Origin: Escherichia phage Turkey5
DNA: 64,000 nucleotides
Sequence record: PQ471516.1
Reading direction: 5' to 3' (one strand)
Below the pieces are notes generated by a model. That model was not told where the DNA came from. It worked only from the letters and a program-made list of their open reading frames with translations, and searched no databases. Each line of letters begins with the position of its first letter. Positions within the stretch are counted from its first letter, which is position 1. Both the position numbers and the translations under genes were made by a program. Positions 47,905-61,067 of the stretch are shown piece after piece.

Positions 47905-48867
47905 TTGAAAAAGCTAGATCTAAATGCAATTGCTGATGAAGTACTGGATGAATGTTTTGCTAGTGAAGAAGTCAACGTATTAGAGGCAATTGATGCCGTT
48001 GAAGAAGAACATGATGACCACAAGTTCGAGAAGCCTAACACTGGTATCAGTTTAACTCGTCCTAAAGGTGTAACGAATGAAATGCTCATCCAGGAAGTAC
48101 GTGATGGCATTAACGTTGAAAAGAACATTGACCTTCTAGTACGTTACAACTACCCAATGATTGTTAGTACTGCTCGTAAATGTACATGTTTCATCCCATT
48201 TGAAGATAAGATTTCATATGGTGTTGAAGGTTTAATGCGAGCGATTCATACATTTGATCCTACTAAGAACGTTAAGTTCATTACCTATGCAACATCAACT
48301 GTGTATATGACAATCTATAACGAAAGTGCAGACGCTAACTACTTAGTGCACTTCCCACGTTATATGAGTGTTAACAACATTTATGTGAAACGTTGTGTAG
48401 AAGCGTACCAAAAGAAATATGGTAGGTTCCCAACTCCAGAGATGGTCGCTGAAGAGACTGGTATTGAGATTCAACACGTTAAGAATTGTCTAACCTACAC
48501 CAATACTTATATGGCATTGGATATGAAATTGAGTACTGATTCAGAAAGTACCTTGTCTGACATTGTTACTACAGTTGATCCTGATTACAACTTAGGTGCA
48601 GAAACTATCAGTATTCCACTGGTACAAAGTATTGCAGATATGATGCATAATCTATCTGAAAAAGACCGTGAGTTGATTGAACGTGTACATGGTATTGGTT
48701 CTTGTGCTGAACCAGAAACGCTACGAGAAATCATTGAGAGCGGTTTTGAAGATGAGAAGGGTAAAGTCATTACTGCTCGTTCTTCCTTGCACCGTAAGTA
48801 CTCTGATGCAATGGAACGCCTACGTAAGATGGTTAAGTCCAGAGGTTATGAGTTCGAAGATTTTTAA
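47905..48867 (+). CDS. sigma-70-family RNA polymerase sigma factor
   Basis: Region 2-like GLMRAIHTFDPTKNVKFITYATSTVYMTI; region 4-like LSEKDRELIERVHGIG; TTG start with AGGAG RBS. Confidence 0.7.
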   Translation: MKKLDLNAIADEVLDECFASEEVNVLEAIDAVEEEHDDHKFEKPNTGISLTRPKGVTNEMLIQEVRDGINVEKNIDLLVRYNYPMIVSTARKCTCFIPFEDKISYGVEGLMRAIHTFDPTKNVKFITYATSTVYMTIYNESADANYLVHFPRYMSVNNIYVKRCVEAYQKKYGRFPTPEMVAEETGIEIQHVKNCLTYTNTYMALDMKLSTDSESTLSDIVTTVDPDYNLGAETISIPLVQSIADMMHNLSEKDRELIERVHGIGSCAEPETLREIIESGFEDEKGKVITARSSLHRKYSDAMERLRKMVKSRGYEFEDF

Positions 48868-48874
48868 GATTAAA

Positions 48875-48901
48875 GGGTTGACTACGGTCAACCCTTTTTT
48901 T
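48875..48901 (+). terminator. intrinsic terminator
   Basis: gggttgac-tacg-gtcaaccc followed by TTTTTTT. Confidence 0.7.
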
Positions 48902-49505
48902 ATGGGACAAATTCGTAAATGGTGATACAATGATCTATGCACAACCACAATGACAGTACTTGTACTGATAATCTTCCCTAATTCACTTGAAAACGTAAAG
49001 GATAGATGAGCTTTTCATTGTAGCGAACAGCAAAAGAAACCCGTTAGATGTGGGCATAGTTTGAACCCCTCACGGCAATGCGGCTGTATAAAGAACCACG
49101 TTAGGATGGCTGGTGGTTCCTCGATAGACATATAAGGATAACACCTTACGAATTATCTAAGGGAGAGTTATCAGATTTTGTACAATATAGTTGCGTCCAA
49201 AATTTGAGTACTCACATTAAGTATTTGATTGCATAGATACTTAATGAAGATACACTATGTTTAAAAGTGTAGACCGTCATATGAAACTGAAGTAGAGAGA
49301 ACCAGGATGACCCGCTTTCGTGCTCTTTAAGAGTAATCTTCAATGCAATAGCTCTGATACCATCAGCGTCAAATTCCCCTCGGTGTGGGGGGGGGAAGAA
49401 AAATCACCTCAACAAATCCCGTCAATATTAAAAGTCCTTGACAGTTATTATACATTCGCGTAAGATACGTAGTATCAGAAGCGAACAGACATCTCGAAGA
49501 GATGG

Positions 49506-49739
49506 ATGATTAACATTAAGGAACATCTAATGAATTCAACAATCTTCTTAGTAGCAGCTCTTTCAATGCAAAGCGGTGTACAAATCACTCCAATGAATTC
49601 CATGAATCAATGTATTTCTGTTCGTGATAGTACCTACGAACAGGTCAATAAAAATATCTGGATGTCTATTGACAAAGAACAGATGTGGTGTTATAACAGT
49701 AATACAAAAGTTAAACTGTTTGTTGGTGAGAAAGAATAA
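49506..49739 (+). CDS. small secreted or membrane protein
   Basis: N-terminal hydrophobic segment. Confidence 0.5.
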   Translation: MINIKEHLMNSTIFLVAALSMQSGVQITPMNSMNQCISVRDSTYEQVNKNIWMSIDKEQMWCYNSNTKVKLFVGEKE

Positions 49740-49742
49740 TAG

Positions 49743-49771
49743 TTGACACGTAAGAAGTTCTAGAGTATAAT
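49743..49771 (+). promoter_or_regulatory. sigma70-like promoter
   Basis: TTGACA, 17 nt, TATAAT. Confidence 0.6.
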
Positions 49772-49820
49772 TTCTACATTGAGTACTGAACTAAATCATT
49801 AATTAATCAAGAGGGTTTAT

Positions 49821-49997
49821 CATGCAAGTTATCGTTCTTATTGTTGGTATCGTACTGGGTGTTTATGGTCATTCCTGGATGCAGGAGAAGTTTCCTAATA
49901 CTCGTCCAGACTTCTGTAGCACTACTGTTAGTTCTGAACTATCTAAAGATAGCATTGGAACTAAACTGGATAAAGTACTGAACGTAATTAACGAGTG
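49821..49997 (+). CDS. small membrane peptide (58 aa)
   Basis: Not in ORF track; RBS AGAGGG; hydrophobic N-terminus MQVIVLIVGIVLGVY. Confidence 0.4.
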
Positions 49998-50009
49998 AGG
50001 TAAGTTATA

Positions 50010-59180: not shown

Positions 59181-59209
59181 TTGACAGTGTTAAAAATAAA
59201 TTATACAAT
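59181..59209 (+). promoter_or_regulatory. sigma70-like promoter
   Basis: TTGACA, 17 nt, TACAAT. Confidence 0.55.
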
Positions 59210-59247
59210 ACTCATCTTATTGTCAAACATATTATAGGAGCGTTAAA

Positions 59248-59325
59248 ATGCAAGCAACGACAATTATCAACGTAGTAGCAGTCACCTTTATTGTAGTACT
59301 GGTAGCATTGAACCTGTTTCTATAA
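59248..59325 (+). CDS. small hydrophobic peptide (25 aa)
   Basis: RBS TAGGAG 8 nt before ATG; MQATTIINVVAVTFIVVLVALNLFL; not in ORF track. Confidence 0.4.
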   Translation: MQATTIINVVAVTFIVVLVALNLFL

Positions 59326-59334
59326 GGAGTAAGT

Positions 59335-59421
59335 ATGGGATTATATCTTGCAATTTCAAGTATTGTCTTTGTTGTTATCGTTACTGGATGGTTTGGGTAT
59401 CTAATGTTAAGTACAAAATAG
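59335..59421 (+). CDS. small hydrophobic peptide (28 aa)
   Basis: RBS AAGGAG before ATG; MGLYLAISSIVFVVIVTGWFGYLMLSTK; not in ORF track. Confidence 0.4.
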   Translation: MGLYLAISSIVFVVIVTGWFGYLMLSTK

Positions 59422-59458
59422 GTTGACTTCGGTCAGCCTTTTCTTTATACTATAAATA
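59421..59458 (+). terminator. terminator-promoter module with overlapping late-type TATAAATA box
   Basis: ggttgac-ttcg-gtcagcc, T-tract, TATACT 17 nt after TTGACT; TATAAATA at 59451-59458. Confidence 0.6.
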
Positions 59459-59480
59459 TAGTCATAGAGAATAAACCAAT

Positions 59481-61025
59481 ATGAAATCTATGGAGAGAAA
59501 TCAAATGCCAGGTCAATTTACTGATAAAAATGGTGGTAATATGGCTGGTCACTCTGATAAATGGAGTGATGCTAACCGCCGTAAGAATAGTTACCAAGCA
59601 GGTCAAGGTTCACGTGGTTCACGTAACCAAGGAACAGGTCTAGCTGGTAAAGCAAACACTGAAGCAGGTGAAGTTAAGAGTACTGAGAACATGACTGAGC
59701 TAGAGAAGCTACGCTATGTTAACTCTTTGGGTCTTCTAAACCCAACACAAAAGCAACGCCTTGCTGATATGGAACGTGCTGAGAAAGAACAAGAAGCACC
59801 ACAACCAGAACAACCTAAACCAGAAGCACCTAAAGCTGCTAACCCAGTTAAAGAGTTGTCTGACAATTTAGGTAAGATCTTTGCTAACAAACCTCAATTG
59901 ATCCAAGGTATTGTTAAAGCACTACAAGCTGTACCTAAAGAAGAACTCAAAGGTAAAGCACAAGCTGTACTGGATGCAATGAAAGGTAATAAGAGTACTG
60001 AACCAACTGAAGTATTCAGTACTATCATGCGTGCACTTGAAGGTCAAGAAGAAGCAACTGCTGAAGAAGCAAGTCTTGAAAGCATCCTCCATACTGTTGA
60101 CAGTATAGGGAAAGAAGACCGTGCTAACGCCCAGCAAGTTAAGAATGTTCTTGCTAAGTTAGAAAACCGTCTTGAAGGTAAAGATGATAAGATTCAATTA
60201 GTATATGATGCTATTAAAGCAGCATTAGATTCTTATGCACCTGGTGAGAAGTCTCGATTCATTACTGCTATGAATGCTGCATTCAATACTATGAAAAAGT
60301 ATGAAGATGAACATGGCGAGAAAGTATCAAAAGATGGTTACTTAGTTCGTGATGATGAAGAAGGGGCAGTTGACCAGAAAGATGCTGAAACATCTCATGA
60401 TGATTTACCTGATACTGTTGATATGGATGGTTACATTCATCGTCCTGAAATGGGAGAGTTTGGTTCTGACAAAGAAGGATTTGAACATGCAATGGCAGTG
60501 TACAAAGCTCTCGTGAACAATCCAGATTATGCCAACCGATTTGTAGATGAGTTTGATAGTGCATGGAACAACTACAAAGACAAAGGTTATGACTTCCCTG
60601 CTGAGGCAGCATTCTTTGAACTTGGTAAACTTTTAGCTAAACATGGAATTGATGTAGGTTCTAAAGATGGTACTGATACTGATGGCATGGAAGCAGAATT
60701 GGCTAAAGATCGTGAAATGAACGACAACTCCATTCATGAACTCCAAAAGCTAATGATGTGGATATCCGATATTGGTAAAAAAGCTGGTGCTGATAATAAG
60801 AGTATCAACAAAAACATTAGTTGGATTAAAAGTAATGTTGGTAAAAATGCTCGTAAACTACAAAAAGCATGGACTGATTTAGTAAATGGTGCTGATGATG
60901 TTGACATTGAATCACCAGAAGCATACGAATATGCATTAACTACTCTTGATAATTCCTTTAAAGATTACGATAACGGTAACGTAACTCATTGGGAAAAGGA
61001 TATCATGAACAAATACGGTAAATGA
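59481..61025 (+). CDS. late protein with low-complexity Gly/Ser/Gln-rich N-terminus (514 aa)
   Basis: Long ORF; upstream TATAAATA; EQEAPQPEQPKPEAPK repeat; possible internal virion protein. Confidence 0.6.
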   Translation: MKSMERNQMPGQFTDKNGGNMAGHSDKWSDANRRKNSYQAGQGSRGSRNQGTGLAGKANTEAGEVKSTENMTELEKLRYVNSLGLLNPTQKQRLADMERAEKEQEAPQPEQPKPEAPKAANPVKELSDNLGKIFANKPQLIQGIVKALQAVPKEELKGKAQAVLDAMKGNKSTEPTEVFSTIMRALEGQEEATAEEASLESILHTVDSIGKEDRANAQQVKNVLAKLENRLEGKDDKIQLVYDAIKAALDSYAPGEKSRFITAMNAAFNTMKKYEDEHGEKVSKDGYLVRDDEEGAVDQKDAETSHDDLPDTVDMDGYIHRPEMGEFGSDKEGFEHAMAVYKALVNNPDYANRFVDEFDSAWNNYKDKGYDFPAEAAFFELGKLLAKHGIDVGSKDGTDTDGMEAELAKDREMNDNSIHELQKLMMWISDIGKKAGADNKSINKNISWIKSNVGKNARKLQKAWTDLVNGADDVDIESPEAYEYALTTLDNSFKDYDNGNVTHWEKDIMNKYGK

Positions 61026-61034
61026 TAAAGAAAA

Positions 61035-61067
61035 GGGTTGACTTCGGTCAGCCCTTTTTGCTATAAT
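61035..61067 (+). terminator. terminator-promoter module
   Basis: gggttgac-ttcg-gtcagccc, TTTTTG, TATAAT 18 nt after TTGACT. Confidence 0.7.

Follow-up and report, generated by a model that had tools for sequence, protein, structure and literature searches.

The small genes in one region of Escherichia phage Turkey5 (sequence record PQ471516.1) are punctuated by a hairpin that recurs in nearly the same form, GGTTGAC-NNNN-GTCA(A/G)CC followed by a T-tract. The question that this locus raises is whether the repeated element is an ordinary terminator, or whether the TTGAC of its 5' arm serves at the same time as the -35 element of the promoter of the next gene. A stretch of 64,000 nucleotides of the phage genome (hereafter, the window) was analyzed. 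We consider it likely, judging from the sequence, that the element is a bifunctional intergenic cassette of approximately 36-40 bp, situated in an early region of the host σ70 type.

Occurrence of the hairpin and of the -10 hexamers

The sequence GGTTGACNNNNGTCARCC is found on the + strand of the window at positions 48876, 55585, 57585, 59145, 59421 and 61036 (18-mer coordinates, used below to name the copies), and these six occurrences compare with a chance expectation of 0.00 in 100 dinucleotide-preserving shuffles. The first 48 kb of the window contain no copy of the pattern. In the order of the copies, the loops are TACG, TTCG, CGAA, TTCG, TTCG and TTCG. An earlier note on this DNA had listed the same six hairpins with the same loops, and its starts at 48875, 57584, 59143 and 61035 merely take in a flanking G or A.

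All six copies have the features expected of intrinsic terminators, namely stems of 7-13 pairs with 4-5 G-C pairs, loops of 4 nt, a T-rich tail and a gene upstream on the same strand. Five to seven of the 8 nt that follow each hairpin are T, the stop codon of a + strand open reading frame (ORF) lies 0-12 nt before the start of each copy, and the predicted RNA folds range from -10.8 to -18.9 kcal/mol. Five copies were flagged as terminator-like by the terminator scan, and copy 61036 was established by inspection and folding.

The -10 hexamers that the earlier note had placed 17-18 nt past TTGAC(T/C) are present in four copies: TATACT at 55611-55616 (spacer 18), TATAGT at 57611-57616 (spacer 18), TATACT at 59446-59451 (spacer 17) and TATAAT at 61062-61067 (spacer 18). 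A TG extended -10 is found in copy 61036 and in none of the copies 55585, 57585 and 59421. In order to estimate the background, we counted hexamers matching TATAAT in at least 5 of 6 positions, with A2 and T6 required, at a spacer of 16-18 behind a T-rich stretch. Such a hexamer occurs at a rate of 0.032 of positions in the window, and its presence in 4 of 6 copies corresponds to p = 1.6e-5.

Conservation of the predicted promoter in other phages

We assign the phage of the window to the Asteriusvirus jumbo phages. Over the stretch compared, it shares 97.6% identity with Escherichia phage vB_EcoM_JNE01 (JNE01); 121Q and PBECO4 are also among its relatives. When the whole genome of JNE01 (355,583 bp) was scanned for terminator-like hairpins, 13 with a TTGAC stem were found, all on the + strand at 266.9-329.1 kb, among small + strand hypothetical ORFs. 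A -10 element at a spacer of 17-18 accompanies 11 of these 13, whereas promoter-like overlap is seen in 4 of the approximately 125 other + strand terminator-like hairpins (Fisher p = 1.7e-11), which have a variety of stems unrelated to the TTGAC type.

The exact 18-mer was also found in 42 stretches of the IMG/VR viral contigs, with 56 copies in unrelated flanks. A -10 element (at least 4/6 matches, with A2 and T6) lies at a spacer of 16-19 in 51 of these 56 copies, and one of at least 5/6 in 41 of them, the background being approximately 3%. A TGn extended -10 is present in 45 and the G that makes a U.G wobble in 52, and the consensus of the viral copies is aaAAaGGGTTGACTTCGGTCAGCCCTTTTtg(c)TAtaaT. 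Neighbouring copies that had escaped the 18-mer selection, with the same arms and other loops (GAAA, GAGA, GCGA, GCAA, GTAA, ACTA, ACAT, TAAG and others), have a -10 element in 27 of 31 cases; where the loop starts with A, the -35 element becomes a perfect TTGACA. Additionally, 705 kb of phage DNA were examined for terminator-like hairpins of every kind, and a good -10 element soon past the 3' arm was found for 65 of 89 hairpins with a TTGAC arm and for 88 of 456 others (p = 1.9e-22).

For the region of the predicted start, 96 distinct family members were aligned on their -10 elements. The T-tract is followed by a G at -14 in 75 of the 96. Past the -10 element, C or T is found at the 6th nucleotide in 92 and A at the 7th nucleotide in 83, and no other downstream position is conserved. 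In position and composition, this pyrimidine-A pair 7 nt past the predicted -10 is the classical -1/+1 start motif at its classical distance. Moreover, Shine-Dalgarno (SD) sequences with start codons peak 26-32 nt after the -10 element.

As a control, the same 18-mer was searched for in 596 Gb of bacterial genomes, where it occurs in 91 stretches. The copies that could be analysed number 81; a T-rich tail is present in 36, which resemble ordinary terminators, and a -10 element at promoter spacing in 2, a strong difference from the phage copies (p = 3.5e-29). Since nearly all the bacterial hairpins lack a -10 element, that of the phage copies is not a by-product of the hairpin or of the T-tract. 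The sole bacterial copy with the full layout of the phage type lies on the Bdellovibrio bacteriovorus chromosome (2599-2616 of the stretch, - strand; aaaaagGGTTGACTTCGGTCAGCCctttctttATTATA...) and may be prophage-derived or may have evolved independently.

A 40-nt consensus of the element matches 173 phage records. RaK2-like jumbo phages carry it in 6-10 places each, and the other carriers are KVP40-group Vibrio phages, Aeromonas T4-like phages, Certrevirus and the Brochothrix phage A9; an identical 36-nt core is found across these unrelated phage groups. At the level of sequence, the association of the hairpin with a predicted promoter is thus real, statistically solid and widely conserved in phages. 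Possible origins of the shared core are a solution that is optimal and was reached repeatedly, or a cassette moving between families, but we advance this pair of origins with considerable reserve. Repeated convergence seems as plausible as transfer, because the two putative functions between them leave hardly any base free.

RNA-level structure of the hairpin

Covariation was analyzed in an alignment of 100 distinct family members, in which the inner five pairs are imposed by the selection and carry no evidential weight. In the outer stem, 11 and 19 compensatory double changes were counted at two pairs. Paired cells amount to 97.6% overall, and none of 500 shuffles reached any of these measures. 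The 3' arm reads GTCAG in 77% of the members. With this arm, the sense RNA retains a U.G pair, the antisense RNA is mismatched at A.C, and the DNA is no longer a palindrome; for copy 61036, the predicted folds are -18.9 kcal/mol for the sense RNA versus -12.5 kcal/mol for the antisense RNA. Most loops are stable UNCG and GNRA tetraloops, UUCG being over-counted owing to the way in which the loci were collected. Folds of the single DNA strands range from -6.8 to -10.1 kcal/mol per strand. A fixed TTGAC in the 5' arm, a free loop and a covarying outer stem are as predicted for a -35 constraint acting on top of a pairing constraint.

Anatomy of the six copies

All the features described in this section are on the + strand unless stated otherwise. 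In copy 55585 (GGTTGAC-TTCG-GTCAACC and T7, 55585-55609), the TGA stop codon (55588-55590) of ORF 55399-55590 falls within TTGAC. The -35 element TTGACT at 55587-55592 is combined with the -10 element TATACT and a predicted +1 at A55623 in a CA motif (55611-55623), and an SD sequence, GAGGG, and an ATG at 55647 follow. Copy 59421 (AGGTTGAC-TTCG-GTCAGCCT and TTTCTT, 59420-59445) has its -35 element TTGACT at 59423-59428, its -10 element TATACT and a predicted +1 at A59458 in a TA motif (59446-59458), and an ATG at 59481. Copy 61036 (AAAAGGGTTGAC-TTCG-GTCAGCCCTTTTT, 61030-61059, -18.9 kcal/mol) ends ORF 59481-61025. Its -35 element TTGACT lies at 61038-61043 and is followed by TGc at 61059-61061, the -10 element TATAAT at 61062-61067 and a predicted +1 at A61074 in a CA motif (61059-61074), with an SD sequence, AGAGGA, and an ATG at 61096 further downstream. 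The identification of copies 55585, 59421 and 61036 as fused terminator/promoters, with a full predicted promoter anatomy, is well supported.

Copy 57585 (GGGTTGAC-CGAA-GTCAACCC and TTTGTTG, 57584-57610, -16.6 kcal/mol) is a different case. Its -35-like sequence TTGACC (57587-57592) is followed by a -10-like TATAGT (57611-57616) that is doubtful: there is no TG, and TC stands in place of the pyrimidine-A start motif. In addition, an SD sequence, GAGG (57618-57621), lies between the -10-like hexamer and the ATG at 57626, 5 nt from the ATG and ahead of the predicted start. A start 7 nt past the -10 would thus give a nearly leaderless mRNA that lacks its SD sequence. We regard this copy as a predicted terminator with a doubtful promoter. 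Its loop, CGAA, is the reverse complement of TTCG; the arms are perfectly symmetric and the loop alone is inverted, which suggests a flip between the arms. The fusion of stem and -35 element proposed in the earlier note has therefore gained comparative evidence and stands with full anatomy at 55585, 59421 and 61036, but it does not hold well at 57585.

The remaining two copies appear from their sequence to be terminators only, each with a separate predicted promoter 10-20 nt beyond. Copy 48876 (AAAGGGTTGAC-TACG-GTCAACCCTTT and T-tract, 48872-48901, -18.5 kcal/mol) ends the gene of a sigma-70-family protein (47905-48867) and has no -10 element at a spacer of 16-18; downstream of it, a separate, weak promoter-like site, GGGACA-16-TACAAT with TG, lies at 48904-48931. 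Copy 59145 (AAGGTTGAC-TTCG-GTCAGCCTT and T-tract, 59143-59168) follows ORF 58754-59137 and has no fused -10 element. The gap between this copy and copy 59421 holds a separate promoter, TTGACA-17-TACAAT, at 59181-59209, together with two very small and strongly hydrophobic ORFs (59248-59325, 25 aa, and 59335-59421, 28 aa) that this promoter is predicted to serve.

On the antisense strand of copy 61036 (61022-61051, - strand), the sequence CTGACC-18-TATCAT was observed; it reads CTGACC, not TTGACC, because of the U.G wobble base.

Proposed function of the cassette

From the anatomy, the statistics, the conservation, the covariation and the predicted folds described above, we infer termination, initiation by host σ70 and recombination at the cassettes, as follows. 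As nascent RNA, the cassette would comprise an A-tract, the GC-rich arm GG(G)UUGAC, a tetraloop of the type UUCG (UNCG) with C-G as its closing pair, the 3' arm GUCA(G/A)CC(C) and a U-tract, and the upstream transcript would end inside the T-tract. As duplex DNA, the A-tract may be UP-like, TTGAC and the first loop base would form the -35 hexamer, and the rest of the hairpin with the T-tract would make up the spacer of 17-18 bp. The last T of the tract and the G that follows it would provide the TG of the extended -10, ahead of a TATAAT-like -10 element. Transcription would start at the A 7 nt downstream of the -10 element, and a leader of approximately 20-25 nt, an SD sequence and an ATG would follow. 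The predicted release point, in the T-tract, would lie at about -18 to -10 of the next promoter.

With such an arrangement, each small early gene would be an insulated unit with its own promoter, and a probable benefit is that it would be spared read-through and promoter occlusion. A second conceivable benefit is that gene units become autonomous and portable; the repeated cassette would also offer short patches of homology for the gain, loss and swap of gene cassettes.

It has been shown that E. coli RNA polymerase, once it has terminated at an intrinsic terminator, usually stays on the DNA and is able to initiate again at promoters close by, and reverse restarts were seen by Harden et al. 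(PMC6978380, PMC6978322). By analogy, a release point in the spacer of the next promoter could permit a direct hand-over of RNA polymerase and termination-coupled reinitiation along the early genes, and the wobble, which spoils the antisense TTGAC, could disfavour reverse restarts. We offer this as a speculation with a low probability of being right.

Several points weigh against a fused terminator and promoter. Two of the six copies have the TTGAC stem without a fused -10 element, so the identity of the stem is not due to the -35 function alone, and the promoter of copy 57585 is doubtful, as described above. The 56 viral copies are not all independent events, since many of them occupy orthologous positions in genomes that are related. 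The U-tract, which has to fit into the spacer, is short for that reason (4-7 T), and termination may be partial. A spacer of 18 nt and a T at position 6 of the -35 element are suboptimal, for both of which TGn may compensate. The phage encodes a sigma-70-family protein of its own, so that either the host holoenzyme or one with the phage protein may act at these sites. Finally, in the literature searched, no mapping of 5' or 3' ends was found for Asteriusvirus or RaK2-like phages, and the only transcript map that turned up when Asteriusvirus, PBECO4 and RaK2 were searched for was that of the distant phage PA5oct.

Alternative explanations

The copies could be ordinary terminators that have been multiplied, in which case the TATAAT-like hexamers would be AT-rich noise or -35-independent extended -10 promoters, and TTGAC would have no promoter role. 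Such an explanation accounts well for copies 48876 and 59145, for the plain terminators that bacteria make of the same hairpin and for the classification of these hairpins as terminators alone in the CBB genome paper, and the TGn found in 45 of 56 viral copies can reduce the need for a -35 element. It is nevertheless unlikely, since 51 of 56 viral copies have their -10 element at a constant distance of 17-18 nt from TTGAC, versus 2 of 81 bacterial ones and a background of approximately 3%, and since TTGAC is invariant while the loop is free and the outer stem covaries. Loop variants that begin with A yield a perfect TTGACA, and the other terminators of the same genomes use diverse stems and rarely have a -10 element. 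The element could also be an operator, an inverted repeat of 7-8 bp with a 4-bp centre at which a dimeric phage or host repressor would shut early promoters; overlap with the -35 element is a common operator position, and copies 48876, 55585 and 57585 are perfect DNA palindromes. The G of GTCAG, however, breaks the palindrome in 77% of the family and keeps a G.U pair in the RNA. The loops, otherwise variable, are enriched for the stable RNA tetraloops UNCG and GNRA, the outer stem covaries, the T-tract and the position after a stop codon are constant, and the hairpin is kept in copies without a promoter. On these grounds we rejected the operator, which we consider very improbable.

Two further explanations were considered. 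The near-identity of the copies might be kept mainly because they are sites of homologous exchange or a mobile regulatory cassette, as in the mini-circle model of the promoter-early stem-loop (PeSL) elements discussed below, the transcription signals being cargo. In favor of this are the insertion or deletion of a cassette between two copies in 121Q versus a single copy in the window, the three different contents between the same two copies in three related phages, the high variability of the region (1 of 79 phage records covering at least 80% of an 8-kb query), the published mini-circles and shuffling at PeSLs in RB49 and phi1 (PMC2839356), and the identical 36-nt core in unrelated phage groups. 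The homology shared is only approximately 30-40 bp, however. Intergenic breakpoints are expected in any case, as coding flanks diverge, and the -35 element, tetraloop, complementary arm, U-tract, TGn and -10 element fix nearly all bases, so that convergence suffices without exchange. Although compatible with a fused terminator and promoter, exchange is quite unlikely to be what primarily maintains the sequence. The least credible proposal, to which we give almost no weight, is a switch in which the fused promoter is used differently once the hairpin is extruded from the DNA or formed in RNA. Single DNA strands can fold, at -6.8 to -10.1 kcal/mol, but the arms have only 7-8 bp, most copies have a mismatch on one DNA strand, there is no covariation or other signal of DNA structure beyond the RNA helix, and the hairpin is upstream of the predicted +1 and hence absent from the downstream transcript. 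A DNA cruciform or switch was rejected for its short arms, for the mismatch in most copies and for the position of the hairpin upstream of +1. The suggestion of the earlier note that hairpin formation influences promoter use found no support for the same reasons, 77% of the members being mismatched in DNA. The preferred explanation remains the fused terminator and promoter, for which the fixed spacing and the covariation argue together.

Gene content around the copies in related phages

In 121Q, two extra small ORFs lie between two copies of the element (6296 and 7381 of the compared stretch), and the window has the single copy 61036 there. The interval between copies 59145 and 59421 has different contents in three phages. 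It measures 276 nt in the window; JNE01 has 496 nt there, including an ORF of 294 nt, and 121Q has 183 nt. Because the 121Q orthologue of copy 59145 has a fused -10 element, TATCAT, it seems that the lineage of the window gained an insertion with its own predicted promoter and the two tiny hydrophobic ORFs.

Between the window and JNE01, a gene-sized segment of 333 bp is absent from the window. The junction shares approximately 17 nt (window 50294-50333, + strand) and falls on the -10 element of a perfect TTGACA-16-TATAAT promoter at 50294-50321. The ends of homology blocks between the window and 121Q coincide with copies, which we did not count as strong evidence, as intergenic DNA loses alignment anyway. 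Insertions and deletions at the copies are suggestive of the modular shuffling published for PeSLs, with which they fit.

Genomic setting

The phage is an E. coli phage with a genome of approximately 350 kb. The window has a G+C content of 35%, and the ORFs that make up its positions 46-64 kb are small, lie on the + strand and have no assigned function. The corresponding part of the genome of the related phage CBB was read as early and dependent on host RNA polymerase (PMC5259590). The region is highly variable: an 8-kb query from it is covered to at least 80% in 1 of 79 matching phage records. Several perfect TTGACA-16/17-TATAAT promoters are found in 46-64 kb. Promoter-like sites with at least 9 of 12 matches number 70 there, versus 74.5 in shuffles, and this lack of an excess means that only strong sites and sites at fixed spacing are informative. 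A palindrome, CAGTACTG, lies directly ahead of the -10 element in two perfect promoters, at 61500-61528 and 63949-63976 (+ strand).

The sigma-70-family protein encoded at 47905-48867 (+ strand) matches the Pfam domains Sigma70_r2 and r3, and no Pfam match was obtained for its region 4. In a Pfam scan of eight ORFs flanking the copies, only this gene gave a match. None of the six copies matched an Rfam covariance model at the gathering score, the matches in the window being tRNAs and a group I intron only. This group I catalytic intron (RF00028, 95 bits; 32996-33309, + strand) lies within a cluster of eight tRNAs at 30480-35753, and the JNE01 counterpart of the stretch is non-collinear and contains an HNH homing endonuclease.

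A second repeated terminator family was observed in JNE01 at 293-302 kb (- strand). It consists of GCCAGTAC-N3-4-GTACTGGC and a T-tract, followed by TAAATA...TATAAT, and is located upstream of a run of - strand genes of similar size (approximately 1.1-1.3 kb).

Significance

The copies provide a precise map of the predicted units of early transcription in a phage family with genomes of 350 kb, for which published descriptions treat the hairpins as terminators only (CBB) or leave the signals unanalysed (RaK2). In the compact 36-nt consensus AAAGGGTTGAC-UUCG-GTCAGCCCTTTTTGCTATAAT, almost every base would have two jobs. This consensus should be useful for the annotation of early genes in jumbo phages and for locating module borders that are prone to recombination, and engineers could employ it as a small part that combines insulator and promoter. 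Composite cassettes of the PeSL type would thereby extend past the T4-like phages; the current understanding of how terminators or promoters function is not changed.

Comparison with known systems

In the CBB genome paper, GGGTTGACTTCGGTCAGCCC appears four times in the table of terminators, and those positions are not in the table of promoters. The genome paper of RaK2 contains no promoter or terminator analysis, and a full-text literature search for TTGACTTCGGTCA returned no phage paper. The dual nature of the element in RaK2-like jumbo phages seems to have gone previously unnoted.

C(UUCG)G hairpins in intercistronic regions of T4 were reportedly described by Tuerk et al. (1988, PNAS) as elements of RNA stability or termination, and not as carriers of a -35 element; the likeness is said to lie in an extra-stable UUCG tetraloop, closed by C-G, at the ends of phage genes. 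Identical hairpins, GGTTGACTTCGGTCA(A/G)CC with a T-tract, follow genes in Acinetobacter, Arthrobacter/Glutamicibacter, Exiguobacterium, Vibrio and other bacteria. Unlike the phage copies, these bacterial terminators are not fused to a promoter (a -10 element in 2 of 81). Lambdoid morons are likewise single genes with their own promoter and terminator, gained or lost as a unit; in them, however, promoter and terminator lie at opposite ends of the gene without a conserved repeat, whereas in the window the predicted terminator and the next predicted promoter share bases (PMC2839356).

The closest known systems are the PeSLs of the phages RB49 and phi1, described by Arbiol et al. (2010) as repeated intergenic cassettes with a consensus σ70 promoter and a terminating stem-loop, in five positional classes that include overlap with the -35 or -10 element. 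They had promoter and terminator activity in lacZ fusions, and recombination of the cassettes gives rise to mini-circles (PMC2839356). Comeau et al. (2014) extended PeSLs to PST/T4 and nt-1/KVP40 (PMC4122927). The outer part of our element, AAAGGG...CCCTTT, is similar to the stem consensus published for nt-1, A3-4 G3-loop-C3 T3-4. The -35 consensus of nt-1 is TTGYVH instead of TTGAC, and the paper places the stem-loops immediately ahead of the promoter (PMC4122927). A few exact copies of the fused element were found in the KVP40-group Vibrio phages phi-pp2 and VH7D.

Two side observations also recall PeSLs. A hairpin at 51585-51621 of the window (+ strand), AGGGATAC-AAT-GTATCCCT, lies over the -10 element of a TTGACA-17-TACAAT promoter, with a T-tract on the - strand, and resembles the RB49 class with a stem-loop across the -10. 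In many RaK2-like copies, the predicted +1 is where a leader motif, CATCGAAACGA(A), begins. RB49 PeSL leaders contain a near-identical CATACCGAAACGAA, and the motif also resembles the TGAAACG box that was named a divergent -35 in the CBB paper (PMC5259590).

Like the PeSLs of RB49 and phi1, the element of the window would be a short intergenic composite of a strong σ70-type early promoter and a terminator or attenuator stem-loop; it is preceded by AT-rich DNA, leads into an SD sequence and a start codon, and recurs in many places within variable regions that are full of small ORFs (PMC2839356). The PeSLs are also associated with insertions, deletions and replacements, for which the phages compared here offer suggestive cases. 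A predicted σ70 promoter with a spacing of approximately 17 bp is present in 4 of 6 copies, with convincing anatomy in 3. The stem-loop overlapping it is stable in predicted folds, is followed by a U-tract and shows outer-stem covariation. The order of elements is stop codon, A-tract, cassette, and SD sequence with ATG 26-32 nt past the -10, and the copies number 6 in 12 kb of the window and 13 in JNE01. In the RB49 cassettes that we inspected, the stem is GGGGATC...GATCCCC or GGGAGTA...TACTCCC, placed in the spacer or over the -10 element and without a U-tract. In the window, by contrast, the 5' arm is itself the putative -35 element, the arms enclose a UNCG tetraloop, and the spacer is made up of a true U-tract, with the result that a canonical intrinsic terminator is kept; moreover, the carrier is an Asteriusvirus jumbo phage and not a member of the Straboviridae. 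We therefore rejected identity with the RB49 PeSLs, as the concept is common and the geometry different. The fused design nevertheless falls within the known PeSL-type composites, a kind already described in T4-like phages.

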